Of a DNA stretch of 45,337 nt, positions 16,298-23,662 are shown in pieces (positions within the stretch are counted from its first letter, which is position 1; every line of letters starts with the position of its first letter). The notes under the pieces are model-generated. The model made no database searches. It was not told the DNA's origin and saw only the letters and a list, made by a program, of their open reading frames with translations. Source of the stretch: a virus (taxonomy: Duplodnaviria; Heunggongvirae; Uroviricota; Caudoviricetes). The stretch lies in the IMG/VR virus record IMGVR_UViG_2718217885_000006; one strand, given 5' to 3'. The position numbers and the translations under genes were made by a program.

Positions 16298-17869
16298 ATG
16301 GACACCTCACTTGCTCATGAGAATGCCCGCCTGCGGGCACTGTTGCAGACACAACAGGACACCATCCGCCAGATGGCTGAATACAACCGCCTGCTCTCAC
16401 AGCGGGTGGCGGCTTATGCTTCCGAAATCAACCGGCTGAAGGCGCTGGTTGCGAAACTGCAGCGTATGCAGTTCGGTAAAAGCTCAGAAAAACTTCGTGC
16501 AAAAACCGAACGGCAGATACAGGAAGCACAGGAGCGAATCAGCGCACTTCAGGAAGAAATGGCAGAAACGCTGGGTGAGCAATATGACCCGGCACTGCCA
16601 TCCCCCCTGCGCCAGTCTTCTGCCCGTAAACCGTTACCGACCTCACTTCCCCGTGAAACCCGGGTTATCCGGCCGGAAGAGGAATGCTGCCCGGCCTGTG
16701 GTGGCGAACTCAGTTCTCTGGGATGTGATGTGTCAGAGCAACTGGAGCTTATCAGCAGCGCCTTTAAGGTTATCGAAGCACAACGTCCGAAACTGGCCTG
16801 TTGCCGGTGCGACCATATCGTGCAGGCACCAGTACCTTCAAAACCCATTGCACGCAGTTATGCCGGAGCGGGGCTTCTGGCCCATGTTGTCACCGGGAAA
16901 TATGCAGACCATCTGCCGTTATACCGCCAGTCAGAAATATACCGTCGCCAGGGCGTGGAGCTGAGCCGCGCCACGCTGGGGCGCTGGACAGGTGCCGTTG
17001 CTGAACTGCTGGAGCCGCTGTATGACGTCCTGCGCCAGTATGTGCTGATGCCCGGTAAAGTCCATGCCGATGATATCCCCGTCCCGGTCCAGGAGCCGGG
17101 CAGTGGTAAAACAAGGACTGCCCGGCTGTGGGTCTACGTCCGTGATGACCGTAACGCCGGTTCACAGATGCCTCCGGCGGTCTGGTTCGCGTACAGCCCG
17201 GACCGGAAAGGCGTCCATCCACAGAATCATCTGGCCGGTTACAGCGGTGTGCTTCAGGCCGATGCTTACGGTGGTTACCGGGTGTTATACGAATCCGGCA
17301 GAATAACGGAAGCCGCGTGTATGGCTCATGCCCGGAGAAAAATCCACGATGTGCATGCAAGAGTGCCCACCGACATCACCACGGAAGCCCTGCAGCGTAT
17401 CGGTGAACTGTATGCCATAGAGGCAGAAGTCCGGGGATGTACAGCAGAACAGCGTCTGGCGGCAAGAAAAGCCAGAGCTGCGCCACTGATGCAGTCACTG
17501 TATGACTGGATACAGACTCAGATGAAAACACTGTCGCGTCACTCGGATACGGCAAAAGCGTTCGCATACCTGCTGAAACAGTGGGATGGCCTGAACGTGT
17601 ACTGCAGTAATGGCCAGGTGGAAATCGACAACAACATCGCAGAGAACGCCTTACGGGGAGTGGCCGTAGGCCGGAAAAACTGGCTCTTCGCGGGTTCCGA
17701 CAGCGGTGGCGAACATGCGGCGGTGTTGTACTCGCTGATCGGCACATGCCGTCTGAACAATGTGGAACCAGAAAAATGGCTGCGTTACGTCATTGAGCAT
17801 ATCCAGGACTGGCCGGCAAACCGGGTACGCGATCTGTTGCCCTGGAAAGTTGATCTGACCTCTCAGTAA
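16298..17869 (+). CDS. IS66-family transposase TnpC
   Basis: 523 aa; N-terminal leucine-zipper-like region, CxxC...CxxC zinc-ribbon (CPACGG ... CCRCDH), DDE-type catalytic region. Confidence 0.85.
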
Positions 17870-18005: not shown

Positions 18006-18431
18006 ATGTTTGGTATTTTCAAAAAGAAAACACGCAAGGCCATTACCGAAGTGAAGAAGATGGAGAATCGCGATGCAGTGGAGGCGACCGTCTGGGGTGC
18101 GTATTCCATTGCATATGCTGACGGCACCTGTGACGCGAAAGAAATCGCGGTACTGGAGAAAACCATTGCAGCACTTCCTGCCTTTGCGCCGTTCTCGGGT
18201 GAGATTGCACAAATGAGTGCAAATATCCGCGCCCGTTATGAAGCATCGCCGCGTTCTGCCAATGCCGAAGCCCTCCGCCAGCTGGCTGATATTGCAGGTA
18301 CTGATGACGCAGTTAATGTGCTGTGCCTGTGTCTGGATATCGCTGACCAGGATGGTATTGGTCCGGATGAAGAAGCACAGCTCAAGAAAATTGCTCAGGC
18401 GCTGCAGCTACCACTGGAGCAGTACCTGTGA
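18006..18431 (+). CDS. TerB-like (tellurite-resistance TerB domain) protein
   Basis: 141 aa; helical protein with YADGTCDAKEIAVLEK and DIADQDGIGPDEEAQLKKIAQAL segments resembling the TerB repeat; call by recollection. Confidence 0.5.
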   Translation: MFGIFKKKTRKAITEVKKMENRDAVEATVWGAYSIAYADGTCDAKEIAVLEKTIAALPAFAPFSGEIAQMSANIRARYEASPRSANAEALRQLADIAGTDDAVNVLCLCLDIADQDGIGPDEEAQLKKIAQALQLPLEQYL

Positions 18432-18592
18432 AAAGTGCGCGCCTTGTGCTGGCTGCCATCCTGCTGTTTCTGGTAGTGGCAGTGGATTTCACCGGACGGC
18501 TGATGTCGGTACTGGCAGATGGTGTGCTGGTGGCGGGGATGGTGATAATGGTGTTGCCTTTGCTGAAGAGTGTAAAAAATACACAGACGTGA
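18428..18592 (+). CDS. small membrane protein (54 aa)
   Basis: GTG start overlapping the TerB-like stop (GTGA); two hydrophobic segments (LVLAAILLFLVVAV, LVAGMVIMVLPLL). Confidence 0.4.
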   Translation: MKSARLVLAAILLFLVVAVDFTGRLMSVLADGVLVAGMVIMVLPLLKSVKNTQT

Positions 18593-18786
18593 AATGTTAA
18601 ATCCATCACAATTAAGTTGATTGGGCATTGCTGGTTGACGGAGCTTTTGTTAGAAAAAATTTGCATGGTGGATCCCCCCGGGTGGTGGGCATATGAGTGA
18701 TGTATGTTTCTGTTCTGCTCCTTTATTATGCTGATTCGGGTACTGATACTGAATTCATCGGGAGGCACCCGGCACCATGCAAGCAT

Positions 18787-18809
18787 GCCCCTCTCCTGAG
18801 GGGCTTTTT
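18787..18809 (+). terminator. intrinsic terminator-like hairpin
   Basis: Stem GCCCCTC/GAGGGGC, 4-nt loop, followed by TTTTT. Confidence 0.45.
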
Positions 18810-18853
18810 ATATAAACAGGTTCTACAGATTCTATCAGACATGCGTAAACTTA

Positions 18854-19189
18854 TTATGGCCTGTGTCGTTTTAGTCCGTAGGGGCATATTTGCAGAATGC
18901 AACGGTTATTAAAGCATTCATTAAATACGTTATCTGAATTTGCAGGGCATTCCTGGCTGTTTTTGATTAAATCCCAGAATCTTTTATTGAATGGTACAAC
19001 GTTGTAAATGGTTACAGGTAGCACTTTGTTATTGAGTACGATACCTGTGTGAGTCAGCGTAAATATACTTTCAGGAGGTAAGAAAACATCCGATTGATAC
19101 CAGATTATTAATTTTATTTTACTCCATATGGCTGAAAAAGATATTCCACATGATGGCTGGATAACTGTATCAATCACAATCCACTTCAT
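18854..19189 (-). CDS. hypothetical protein (111 aa) in AT-rich island
   Basis: ATG with AAGGA SD 6-7 nt upstream; opposite strand to surrounding late genes; long AT-rich upstream region 19190-19435. Confidence 0.4.
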
Positions 19190-19450
19190 TTAGTTTCCTT
19201 ATTTATGCCTTGCTGGTGATGTTCTGAAAAGTATAAATGATAATTTTGAATGTAAACCATAGAGCAGAACTGTTTTTCTGATTTTGTTTATTGTTTATTT
19301 AAAATGCAGGGTGGTTTATATCTCGTCTTGTAGTTTATCCATGCATATCTGCTTTATGATGAGGTTTTATTTAAGGTATGGTTTTGTGTTTTTTTCTGTA
19401 TTGCATGTCAGGTATTTTAAAGAATTATTTTTTAGATGGTGGAAAGAACC

Positions 19451-19786
19451 ATGGCATTTAAACACTATGATGTTGTCAGGGCGGCGTCGCCGTCAGATCT
19501 TGCGGAAAAGCTGACACACAAACTGAAAGAGGGCTGGCAGCCATACGGCGGACCGGTTGCCATTACGCCGTACACACTGATGCGGGCGGTGGCTATTGAA
19601 GGAGAGCCACAGGTCGGCCCTTCATCTGAGCCGGACTGGTTCTACGTGGTTGTGCTTACCGGACAGTCCAACAGCATGGCCTACGGTGAAGGGCTTCCGT
19701 TACCGGATTCTTACGATGCTCCGGATCCGCGCATTAAACAGCTGGCGCGCCGCAGCACGGTAACTGGCATTTTTAGCAGAGCCTGA
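19451..19786 (+). pseudogene. truncated nanS-p-like gene (DUF1737 plus start of sialate O-acetylesterase domain)
   Basis: N-terminus MAFKHYDVVRAASPSDLAEKLTHKLKEGWQPYGGP matches the DUF1737 module found upstream of lambdoid lysis genes; then the beginning of an SGNH/SASA esterase (VVVLTGQSNSMAYGEG) and stops after about 110 codons. Confidence 0.6.
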
Positions 19787-19893: not shown

Positions 19894-20100
19894 ATGGAAA
19901 AAATTACAACAGGTGTGTCATACACCACGTCAGCGGTGGGGACGGGATACTGGTTACTGCAGCTGCTGGACAGGGTTTCCCCGTCTCAGTGGGCGGCAAT
20001 AGGCGTGCTGGGGAGTCTGCTGTTTGGTCTGCTGACGTACCTGACGAACCTGTATTTCAAAATTAAAGAAGACCGGCGTAAGGCGGCGCGGGGAGAGTAG
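19894..20100 (+). CDS. holin (lambdoid S-type)
   Basis: 68 aa; [23 protein letters not shown] ... hydrophobic helix ... C-terminal charged tail ([13 protein letters not shown]); GGAG SD. Confidence 0.8.
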
Positions 20101-20103
20101 ACG

Positions 20104-20745
20104 ATGAACCATGAAGAAATGAATCAGCGCATAAGTTGCCTGGAAAATGAAATCACTGAACTGAATAAAAAACTGTCGGTGCTGATGGTTTCTGAAGATG
20201 AAAAAAAACGCCGCGATGAGCAGGAAGCAGCGTTTTACGATGATTGCATCAAAATTGCTCGCAGGACCTTTGCGAAGATTTTGCAGGAAAAGTTTTTACC
20301 GACCGCATTGTCAGAAAAGCACTCCATTACAGTTAAAAGTGCCGGAGAGGAAGGCAATAAACGTTATTTTATTGCGTCTGCACCGGATAAAGACCAGGAA
20401 TGGGGGGGGAATCGGCCATCTTTTATTGTGACAAGCGATGACTGGAATATCACGATCCGTGAAGATGGAAAAGTAACACCAGCATCGCACCAGCACAGTG
20501 AGGCGCTCATTGAATTTGCCATTGATTACCTGAAGAACAATAAAAAGCAGGGACTAATGAAGCGCATTGGTCGTTGCATGGGATATCTGCAGGTAGCTGC
20601 TGAGATTGAAGCGCTGGCCAGTGGTGCGGACAAGGATGCAGTTGTGCGGGAGGCTCTTCTTCGTGATTTTGATAATCCACCCTTTAAAAAAGTGCCGGCT
20701 TACTGGTTTCATCCAGGACTGACTTATCTTAAAGGACGTATATAA
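20104..20745 (+). CDS. hypothetical protein (213 aa) inserted between holin and endolysin
   Basis: ATG 4 nt after holin stop with GGAGAG SD; N-terminal coiled-coil (NQRISCLENEITELNKKLSVL); no recognisable domain. Confidence 0.55.
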   Translation: MNHEEMNQRISCLENEITELNKKLSVLMVSEDEKKRRDEQEAAFYDDCIKIARRTFAKILQEKFLPTALSEKHSITVKSAGEEGNKRYFIASAPDKDQEWGGNRPSFIVTSDDWNITIREDGKVTPASHQHSEALIEFAIDYLKNNKKQGLMKRIGRCMGYLQVAAEIEALASGADKDAVVREALLRDFDNPPFKKVPAYWFHPGLTYLKGRI

Positions 20746-20754
20746 GCTGGCTCG

Positions 20755-21069
20755 TTATCTGTTGCCGGATAATCGACGGAAGATGCGTTCTTTTTGTGAT
20801 TTGGCGTAATGATGATCCCACTCACATTCAAGGTAGTTTAATTCTTCGTTTAACCAGTCATTTATATTGTCTTTCAGACGTAGAAGCATGGCTGGTGTTA
20901 ATATTCTGGACATAATGTCGAGAGTTGGTGGTGTGAGGTGTCCATACGGTTCAGCCTGAATGGATTTTACTGCTTCGTGGTTTTGCTGAATGAGTTTAAG
21001 GAATGCTGATTTAAATTGTTCATTCATGGCCTGCATGCAGGCGGTATATTTATGTTCATCGTTATACAT
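20755..21069 (-). CDS. hypothetical protein (about 104 aa), convergent with preceding gene
   Basis: Start chosen at ATG (MYNDEHKY...) with GAGGA SD 8-9 nt upstream; the track ORF extends to a GTG at 21123. Confidence 0.45.
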   Translation of the reverse strand: MYNDEHKYTACMQAMNEQFKSAFLKLIQQNHEAVKSIQAEPYGHLTPPTLDIMSRILTPAMLLRLKDNINDWLNEELNYLECEWDHHYAKSQKERIFRRLSGNR

Positions 21070-21197
21070 TGCTAAATCCTCGACGGGAATTGTCAGATAT
21101 ATTTCAGCCATCAGGTAAAACACCAGTGCCCACCACTGGCGGGCTGAAGACTTAACATATCCAGGGATTCGGAACCGATAAATCCTGATAAATATCC

Positions 21198-21731
21198 ATG
21201 AACACCAAAATCAAATACGGTCTGTCGGCTGCCGTTCTGGCGCTGATTGCCGCAGGTGCGCCTGCGCCTGAAATCCTCGACCAGTTTCTGGATGAAAAGG
21301 AAGGTAACCACACAACGGCATACCGCGATGGTTCCGGCATCTGGACCATCTGTCGGGGTGCCACGATGGTGGATGGAAAACCCGTTTTTCCCGGTATGAA
21401 ACTGTCGAAGGAAAAATGCGACCAGGTCAACGCCATTGAGCGTGATAAGGCGCTGGCATGGGTGGAGCGCAATATTAAAGTACCACTGACCGAACCACAA
21501 AAAGCGGGTATCGCGTCATTTTGTCCCTATAACATTGGCCCCGGTAAGTGTTTTCCATCGACGTTTTATAAGCGGCTGAATGCTGGTGATCGTAAAGGTG
21601 CATGCGAGGCGATTCGCTGGTGGATAAAAGATGGTGGGCGCGATTGCCGCATACGTTCAAATAACTGCTATGGACAGGTTATTCGTCGTGACCAGGAAAG
21701 CGCATTAGCCTGTTGGGGGATAGATCAGTGA
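21198..21731 (+). CDS. endolysin, GH24 lysozyme with N-terminal SAR-like segment
   Basis: 177 aa; weakly hydrophobic Gly/Ala-rich N-terminus ([19 protein letters not shown]) followed by T4-lysozyme-like catalytic region ([23 protein letters not shown]). Confidence 0.85.
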
Positions 21732-22195
21732 GCAGAGTCGCCGCGATTATTTATGCTCTGGTTATCTGCATCATCGTCTGCCTGTCGTGGGCGGTCAATC
21801 ATTACCGTGATAACGCCATCGCCTACAAAGAACAGCGTGATAAAAAAGTCAGTGAGCTGAAGCAGGCGATCGCCACCATCGCTGACATGCAGCAGCGTCA
21901 GCGTGATGTTGCTGCTCTCGATGCAAAGTACTCGAGAGAATTAGCCAATGCGAAAGCTGAAAATGAAACTCTGCGCGCTGATGTTGCCGCTGGTCGTAAG
22001 CGCCTGCGGGTCAATGCCAGTTGCTCCGCAGCCGTGCGTGAAGCCACCGGACCCACCAGCGTGGATAATGCAACCAGCCCCCGACTGGCAGACACCGCTG
22101 AACGGGATTATTTCACCCTCAGAGAACGGTTGATGACGATGCAGAAGCAACTGGAAGGGGCGCAGGAATATATTCGCACCCAGTGCATTAAGTAG
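21728..22195 (+). CDS. i-spanin Rz
   Basis: N-terminal TM helix ([19 protein letters not shown]) plus coiled-coil periplasmic domain; near-identical to lambda Rz as recalled; GTG start with GGGGGA SD, overlaps endolysin stop. Confidence 0.8.
21948..22133 (+). CDS. o-spanin Rz1 (embedded in Rz in the +1 frame)
   Basis: 61 aa; lipoprotein signal with lipobox VVSAC; Pro-rich mature part ([30 protein letters not shown]), very close to lambda Rz1 as recalled. Confidence 0.8.
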
Positions 22196-23146: not shown

Positions 23147-23662
23147 CTACTGGAGGGTTGTTTGAATTAGTCGAAGTGCGTTCGGCAGATTCAGAGCCCC
23201 CTGAGTCAGTAACTGTAGGGTCAAATGTTTTATGGCGTCTCCCGGAAGCTCTCGGAGTTTTGAAATCAATCCCTTCTTCTGATCTTCAGGTATATTTGCA
23301 ACACGGATTATATCCTCAAGGGCAACAATCGTGTCATTGTGTAACCGAACGGTTTGAACTTTAAGGATCGCACTTAAGCCGCCATCATCAAGAAGAAAAT
23401 CAATTCCTTTCTCTGTAATGTTGCAGTACGGGGCATTGAAGATAAAATCAACGCCATCCATGGTATCGCTGCGTACGAAGGGTGTAGAAACGAGACCATG
23501 CATTTCAAGGTATAACATGCACGCCACAAAGTGATCATAGCTGTCAAATTTCTCAATAAGGTCTTGTTCCTGTGCCTTGTTTAAAGAGTTAGGAGCACAA
23601 TCTATAAGGGCGTTGAGGATTTCAAGTTGTAAGGTTCTGTCATATTTTCTGGTTTTATCCAT
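23147..23662 (-). CDS. hypothetical protein (171 aa), reverse-oriented moron
   Basis: Well-formed helical ORF on the opposite strand between HNH and terS; GGAG SD; AT-rich relative to flanking structural genes. Confidence 0.5.
   Translation of the reverse strand: MDKTRKYDRTLQLEILNALIDCAPNSLNKAQEQDLIEKFDSYDHFVACMLYLEMHGLVSTPFVRSDTMDGVDFIFNAPYCNITEKGIDFLLDDGGLSAILKVQTVRLHNDTIVALEDIIRVANIPEDQKKGLISKLRELPGDAIKHLTLQLLTQGALNLPNALRLIQTTLQ

Follow-up and report, generated by a model that had tools for sequence, protein, structure and literature searches.

Two accessory genes between the holin and endolysin genes of an Escherichia coli lambdoid prophage

In lysis cassettes of the Qin and Shiga toxin (Stx) type, a gene of the YdfR family normally fills the gap between holin and endolysin. 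The Qin prophage of Escherichia coli K-12 has the order essQ-ydfR-rrrQ, with ydfR (b1555) starting 4 nt after the S21-type holin gene and ending at the endolysin gene, and Stx1-type prophages of O157 have the order holin, YdfR, lysozyme. YdfR was reported in 2026 to bind the catalytic (N-terminal) domain of RNase E and to co-purify with RNA, and the contact with RNase E was placed in its DUF1327 domain, residues 1–72 (PMC13232886). Here we describe the corresponding slot in a viral sequence of 45,337 nt (IMG/VR record IMGVR_UViG_2718217885_000006), referred to below, at its full length, as the window. Two open reading frames (ORFs), ORF-A (20104–20745, plus strand) and ORF-B (20755–21069, minus strand), lie between the holin gene and a signal-arrest-release (SAR) endolysin gene, at the positions given in a preliminary description of this DNA. 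That description regarded the cassette as abnormally interrupted. The comparisons reported here contradict it on this point, as the same slot is filled in Qin, in O157 Stx1 prophages and in the sampled E. coli matches that included both holin and lysozyme.

Our main conclusion, to which we assign a probability of about 0.7, is that ORF-A and ORF-B are accessory genes independent of each other, occupying a slot known to vary, and not a toxin/immunity pair. The evidence comes from a survey of 108 non-redundant viral loci in IMG/VR that carry the conserved C-terminal module of ORF-A (the C-module). Downstream of the ORF-A-type gene, 73 of these loci have no cargo, 28 have ORF-B, 5 have a divergent relative, ORF-B′, and 2 have an unrelated gene pair; the distance from the ORF-A stop codon to the lysozyme start is 36–42 nt without cargo and 424–454 nt with ORF-B or ORF-B′. 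The boundaries of the ORF-B insertion are sharp, running from the ORF-A stop codon to a point about 25–30 nt before the endolysin ATG, where the sequence is conserved. Of 5426 complete E. coli genomes, 787 (about 15%) carry C-module DNA and 95 carry ORF-B DNA, an approximately eightfold difference. Because the ORF-A module occurs mostly without ORF-B, the pair is not an obligate unit, and the obligate co-occurrence expected of toxin and immunity genes is absent both from the viral loci and from the complete genomes.

The two genes also vary separately. ORF-B sits behind at least three ORF-A architectures, of 213 aa, 185 aa and a 268-aa DUF1327 fusion. Its most divergent relative, ORF-B′, adjoins an ORF-A module 94–95% identical to that of the window, and the two genes therefore do not co-diverge. 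ORF-B alleles are thus exchanged independently, and the 1-kb insert, which the preliminary description proposed to follow through related prophages as a possible unit, does not come and go as one. As in morons, ORF-B is discretely present or absent between genes that are adjacent in relatives, and it deviates in base composition: G+C content is 54.6% in the holin gene, 44.5% in ORF-A, 39.7% in ORF-B, 51.7% in the endolysin gene and 54.0% in Rz. The features of the cassette are as follows.

19894–20100, plus strand: phage-21-type class II (pin)holin, 68 aa (Pfam Phage_holin_2_1, 3.5e-33; PHROG holin families; class II holin in the Prokaryotic Genome Annotation Pipeline, PGAP)
20104–20745, plus strand: ORF-A, 213 aa (phrog_1085, 1.7e-101)
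20104–20298, plus strand: ORF-A residues 1–65, helical, coiled-coil-like N-terminal region (AlphaFold2 and alignment)
20416–20742, plus strand: ORF-A residues 105–213, core of the conserved C-terminal module (invariant alignment columns)
20746–21168: ORF-B cassette, approximate extent about 420 bp (alignment with the cassettes of CE10 and L032, which lack ORF-B)
20755–21069, minus strand: ORF-B, 104 aa, facing ORF-A tail to tail and reading against the late operon (phrog_1853, 8.4e-47)
21070–21197, minus strand: ORF-B leader and putative promoter region (conservation among alleles)
21198–21731, plus strand: SAR-type endolysin (lysozyme), 177 aa (Pfam Phage_lysozyme, 1.4e-24; hydrophobic N-terminus, maximum Kyte-Doolittle value 1.74)
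21713–22195, plus strand: Rz spanin ORF (Pfam Phage_lysis, 1.1e-49)
21948–22133: Rz1 lipoprotein gene, embedded in Rz (PGAP annotation)

ORF-A and the slot behind the holin

ORF-A starts 3 nt past the holin stop codon, and a GGAG some 8 nt before its ATG falls inside the 3′ end of the holin gene. The preliminary description gave a start 4 nt after the holin stop with a good Shine-Dalgarno sequence, and a coiled-coil N-terminus. AlphaFold2 places two long helices within residues 1–64 or so (3–27 and 31–64; predicted local distance difference test, pLDDT, about 80 for the first 20 or so residues), which fits a coiled coil.

A homology search returned 189 relatives of ORF-A. Those of 259–333 aa bear an N-terminal DUF1327 domain (PF07041, the "YdfR family") and match that model at 9e-41, whereas ORF-A has no PF07041 match even at E ≤ 1. 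The long relatives are 58–64% identical to ORF-A across 99% of its length, so that all of ORF-A has a homologous counterpart within them, while ORF-A itself lacks the domain by which Pfam defines the family. In alignments, ORF-A matches what comes after DUF1327 in the long forms, which is a coiled-coil-like helical linker, then a variable insert and finally the conserved C-module. Its N-terminal helices align with the linker helix after the DUF1327 domain. The C-module is marked by the motifs GRCMGYLQVAAEIEA and DFDNPPFK..P..W..PG..YLK, the columns of which are invariant in the alignments, and it has no Pfam model. Forms without DUF1327, of 185–222 aa, are common; they number hundreds of sequences in several length classes and share a start of their own, MNHEEMNQR.... 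The ratio of nonsynonymous to synonymous substitution rates (dN/dS) for the C-module is 0.20–0.37. Judged from these alignments, ORF-A is a DUF1327-less isoform of the long YdfR-family proteins and a resident gene of the slot.

Residence in the slot is nearly constant. In the surveyed loci a holin gene lies 6–7 nt upstream of the C-module gene in 103 of 108 and a lysozyme gene downstream in 105 of 108, and every sampled E. coli search row in which both holin and lysozyme were matched had a gene in between. The preliminary description had allowed that its reading would fall if the 213-aa protein turned out to be a conserved lysis accessory protein. By position this is what we find, ORF-A being a conserved resident of lysis cassettes with homology to long YdfR over nearly its entire length.

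The lineage is narrowly distributed. An exhaustive phmmer search of 1.84 billion representative proteins with the ORF-A module returned just 23. Distant relatives (30–48% identity) are likewise built from an N-domain, a coiled coil and a C-module, in that order, and carry no informative extra domain; scans for this distant clade gave only E. coli-type loci in IMG/VR and one Escherichia locus in species-representative genomes. The ORF-A lineage thus appears essentially restricted to Escherichia.

Searches for known functions were negative for both proteins. Neither has a family in Pfam or NCBIfam, and neither matched any of 5027 PADLOC models at E ≤ 1; the absence of a recognizable domain noted earlier is borne out in these three collections, and both proteins do fall in PHROG families, ORF-A at profile positions 117–296 of phrog_1085 and ORF-B in phrog_1853, to which PHROG assigns no function. 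A sequence-profile search of the PDB gave noise only, such as AbpA, matched along the coiled coil at an E value of 0.01, and GCN4 fusions. Across Pfam, NCBIfam, PADLOC and the PDB profiles we found no toxin, antitoxin, immunity or defense homology for either protein, and literature searches on DUF1327, on lysis-cassette morons and hotspots and on the locus tags turned up nothing on these two proteins, the one relevant paper being the YdfR study cited above. No transmembrane segments were found in ORF-A or ORF-B. The data support a description of both as uncharacterized, conserved proteins that are predicted to be soluble.

ORF-B and its leader

The stop codon of ORF-B (20755–20757) lies 9 nt from that of ORF-A, on the opposite strand. 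Its 104-aa frame starts at an ATG at 21069, preceded by the Shine-Dalgarno sequence GAGGA at 21081–21077. PGAP chooses an ATG further upstream (21111), which a 1-nt indel puts out of frame in other alleles; the start at 21069 is the true one. Five ORF-B alleles with 75–89% nucleotide identity all keep a length of 315 nt with zero indels, and the other five reading frames over the gene contain 2–12 stops. dN/dS is 0.22–0.49, with p ≤ 0.011 in 10 of 10 comparisons. By these coding signatures ORF-B is a real protein-coding gene under purifying selection, and the alternative raised in the preliminary description, that the minus-strand frame might not be conserved as a protein, does not hold. A subfamily, ORF-B′ (106 aa, 47–50% identical to ORF-B), also belongs to phrog_1853.

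The predicted fold of ORF-B is a confident bundle of five helices (AlphaFold2 pLDDT 85.6, predicted template modeling score 0.79), and a fold search with this model found no informative structural relative. A zinc site formed by a conserved Cys and His was considered and dropped, because both residues are absent from ORF-B′. The exact protein is present on about 970 contigs. Among 50,697 phage records, ORF-B DNA occurs in 4, which represent two phages. In one locus (L011, 4440–5370, on a contig shared with L168) an IS1 element with a recognizable InsA gene lies at the 5′ end of ORF-B and parts it from the lysozyme gene.

The 128 nt that separate the start codons of ORF-B and the endolysin gene are 86–100% identical among eight alleles; in pairs for which both were measured, this leader is about 9–11 percentage points more conserved than the ORF-B coding sequence. 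It contains a terminator-like hairpin followed by a U-run on the minus strand (21144–21121), that is, upstream of ORF-B and not downstream. The leader RNA folds at −34.6 kcal/mol, more stably than shuffled sequences (z = −3.9). RNAalifold detected no compensatory covariation in the leader, which we ascribe to its being too conserved for covariation to show, and an Rfam scan of the region gave no match. The hairpin may act as an attenuator, a 5′ stabilizer or an insulator. Reading the sequence by eye, we noted a weak pair of hexamers further upstream, a −35-like TTTATC (21182–21177) and a −10-like TATGTT (21159–21154), separated by a 17-nt spacer.

The two loci with unrelated cargo, L029 (2284–2833) and L031 (4170–4719), have, at the ORF-B site, a 75-aa plus-strand DUF1327-like gene and a convergent 105-aa minus-strand gene (phrog_10490). 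They present a second case of a plus/minus gene pair just before an endolysin gene. That the 105-aa gene might be a remote ORF-B homologue was ruled out (hhalign probability 0.8%). The leader hairpin recurs with the cargo of L029, there without a U-run.

One unit or two genes

The argument for treating ORF-A and ORF-B as a functional two-gene module, either toxin and immunity or effector and regulator, is the constancy of their arrangement. ORF-B and ORF-B′ were always convergent with a C-module gene, 9–27 nt away or overlapping it, in 53 of 53 IMG/VR loci and in every other locus inspected; ORF-B was never found beside a short YdfR, and at ORF-B′ loci the 3′ ends of both genes overlap. ORF-B would then bind or restrain the C-module, for example by neutralizing leaky ORF-A in the lysogen. 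Homologous recombination through the flanks would, however, predict exclusive adjacency without any such interaction. The predominance of C-modules without ORF-B, the uncoupled divergence of the two genes and the replacement of ORF-B by unrelated cargo all speak against a module, as do the convergent orientation, which precludes an operon, and the lack of any toxin, antitoxin or defense match in PADLOC or Pfam. We regard this explanation as improbable. If instead ORF-B, alone or with its leader RNA, were an anti-phage defense or superinfection-exclusion gene expressed by the prophage, ORF-A would be irrelevant to it. Prophage morons often encode exclusion functions, and the anatomy of ORF-B is moron-like: it runs against the late operon, is rich in A+T and forms a sharp-edged insertion that some loci have and others lack. 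Its occurrence at four places in one genome, that of E. coli GB089, and on so many contigs would also suit a defense gene. Yet none of the PADLOC models recognizes it, the fold search gave it no informative relative, as a helical protein of 12 kDa devoid of enzymatic motifs it offers no clue to a mechanism, and no consensus promoter was found upstream; we consider a specific defense role unlikely. The proposal of exclusion, anti-defense or toxin/immunity cargo made in the preliminary description survives in part, in that ORF-B is cargo-like and antisense to the late operon, and fails with regard to toxin, immunity or defense homology.

A more skeptical reading would derive ORF-A by decay from a long YdfR gene through loss of its 5′ part and would take ORF-B for a chance ORF in the residual DNA, with neither of them functional. 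ORF-A does lack the N-terminal domain of its relatives, and PGAP marks several slot genes as pseudogenes. But the DUF1327-less forms have their own conserved start in many sequences and several length classes, the holin-coupled start is retained, and both ORFs have intact frames and dN/dS values well below 1. The "pseudogene" of E. coli O104:H4 is itself an intact 268-aa ORF. These analyses contradict the remnant explanation, which we judge to be very improbable. In that strain (2011C-3493; L008, 3316–4131) the gene annotated by PGAP as a pseudogene with a missing C-terminus is a DUF1327 and C-module fusion, and it is followed by an intact ORF-B.

Under the preferred reading, of two independent genes in the accessory slot of Qin/Stx-type pinholin/SAR-endolysin cassettes, ORF-A would be made from the late transcript together with holin, probably by translational coupling to the holin gene, and would act in the cytoplasm as a soluble oligomer at the time of lysis. 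Because the C-module is so often fused to DUF1327, ORF-A probably belongs to the same pathway as YdfR. The two likeliest roles, which we place level with each other and consider doubtful when taken singly, are modulation of lysis timing and modulation of late host RNA or physiology in the YdfR pathway. ORF-B would be a moron comparable to lambda bor, with a promoter of its own that is active in the lysogen; tentatively, its expression there may bring a benefit (exclusion or defense) or dampen the lysis cassette. A more elaborate version, also improbable in our estimation, would make the C-module an unrecognized cytoplasmic factor that regulates either pinholin/SAR-endolysin lysis or the turnover of late RNA, with ORF-B and the antisense leader as a lysogen-expressed brake on the module or the cassette. 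The pair would then tune lysis and hence the timing of Shiga toxin release in prophages of enterohemorrhagic E. coli.

Several observations weigh against the preferred reading. ORF-B has been seen only beside the C-module, in all of the IMG/VR loci and in all of about 8 others inspected. We explain this by linkage, given that the 3′ end of ORF-A serves as the left flank for recombination, and the adjacency leaves room for a functional tie. In DLP12 (essD-rrrD) holin and endolysin are adjacent and the slot is empty; such cassettes show the slot gene to be accessory to lysis and not part of its core. The DUF1327 domain, to which the RNase E contact was reported to map, is missing from ORF-A, and no DUF1327-like sequence was found elsewhere in the window. 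The full AlphaFold2 model of ORF-A, built with 25 homologues, is poor (pLDDT 49.7) and was unusable for a fold search. For ORF-B, no sigma-70 consensus passed the promoter scan upstream of the gene, the proposed hexamers agree with the consensus at only 7 of 12 positions, and no terminator was found after the gene. Finally, we infer the functional steps for both proteins, and no tool result supports a specific biochemical activity.

The surrounding prophage and known systems

The window corresponds to a complete lambdoid E. coli prophage. A 2-kb stretch used as a search query was 100% identical to E. coli strain GB089 (NZ_CP013663.1), and the GB089 annotation agrees across the full window. In GB089 the lysis region matches 8 places and ORF-B is present at 4, from which we conclude that the lysis cassette has been multiplied over several resident prophages. 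PGAP annotates Rz1 in GB089 and omits the Rz spanin gene in spite of its Pfam match, probably because that gene has a non-ATG start overlapping the endolysin stop codon.

Other cargo lies just upstream of the holin gene (18006–19786), including TerB-family and DUF3927 genes, a minus-strand gene for an IraM-like anti-adaptor (18854–19189) and a truncated DUF1737 fragment (19436–19786). The fragment is possibly the N-terminal remnant of a DUF1737/SASA esterase found upstream of holin in related prophages. A complete IS66 element (tnpA/tnpB/tnpC, about 15281–17869) separates the lysis cassette from the DUF1133 and helix-turn-helix genes that follow the replication module, and it may affect expression of the late operon in this prophage. 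Rfam matches at gathering level, all on the plus strand, are isrK (8672–8748), C4 antisense RNA (8773–8860) and the small RNA STnc100 (18634–18809). A second antisense hypothetical gene, of 171 aa, lies on the minus strand at 23147–23662, between the HNH endonuclease and small terminase genes.

The value of these results is mainly in annotation. Both genes were already catalogued in PHROG and occupy a known variable slot. The analysis adds that a C-module widespread in E. coli prophages, for which Pfam has no model, can exist without DUF1327, and that ORF-B represents a small family confined to Escherichia, whose helical fold is predicted with confidence but has no match. It also identifies errors in PGAP, which places the start of ORF-B wrongly and calls some intact slot genes pseudogenes. 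Were either protein to affect lysis timing, this would bear on the release of phage and toxin from Stx-type prophages.

A close counterpart of the locus is orf5/orf6 of Stx2-converting phage 86, which has the same order of holin, a plus-strand C-module gene (gp05, YP_794052), a convergent 104-aa gene (gp06, YP_794053) and lysozyme. gp06 is 68% identical to ORF-B; the record names gp05 a YdfR family protein and gp06 hypothetical. The upstream genes differ in architecture, in that gp05 (268 aa) has DUF1327 fused directly to the C-module and no coiled coil, whereas in ORF-A the coiled coil is present and DUF1327 absent.

Morons of the lambda bor/lom type, in the concept of Juhala and Hendrix, are genes in or beside the late operon that have their own expression in the lysogen. 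ORF-B resembles them in being a discrete insertion with deviant base composition, and it reads in the direction opposite to late transcription. Bor and Lom are exported to the envelope and have known phenotypes; ORF-B, in contrast, is predicted to be cytoplasmic, and its own promoter and terminator are only putative. For ORF-A, analogies are offered by LydB of P1 and RIII of T4, soluble holin-associated lysis regulators encoded beside the holin gene. Searches of Pfam, NCBIfam and PHROG revealed no sequence similarity between ORF-A and known holin-associated regulators, and holins of the S21 type already encode an antiholin isoform of their own. The likeness of ORF-A to LydB and RIII is one of setting: it is predicted to be soluble, is encoded directly after holin and is probably co-translated with it.

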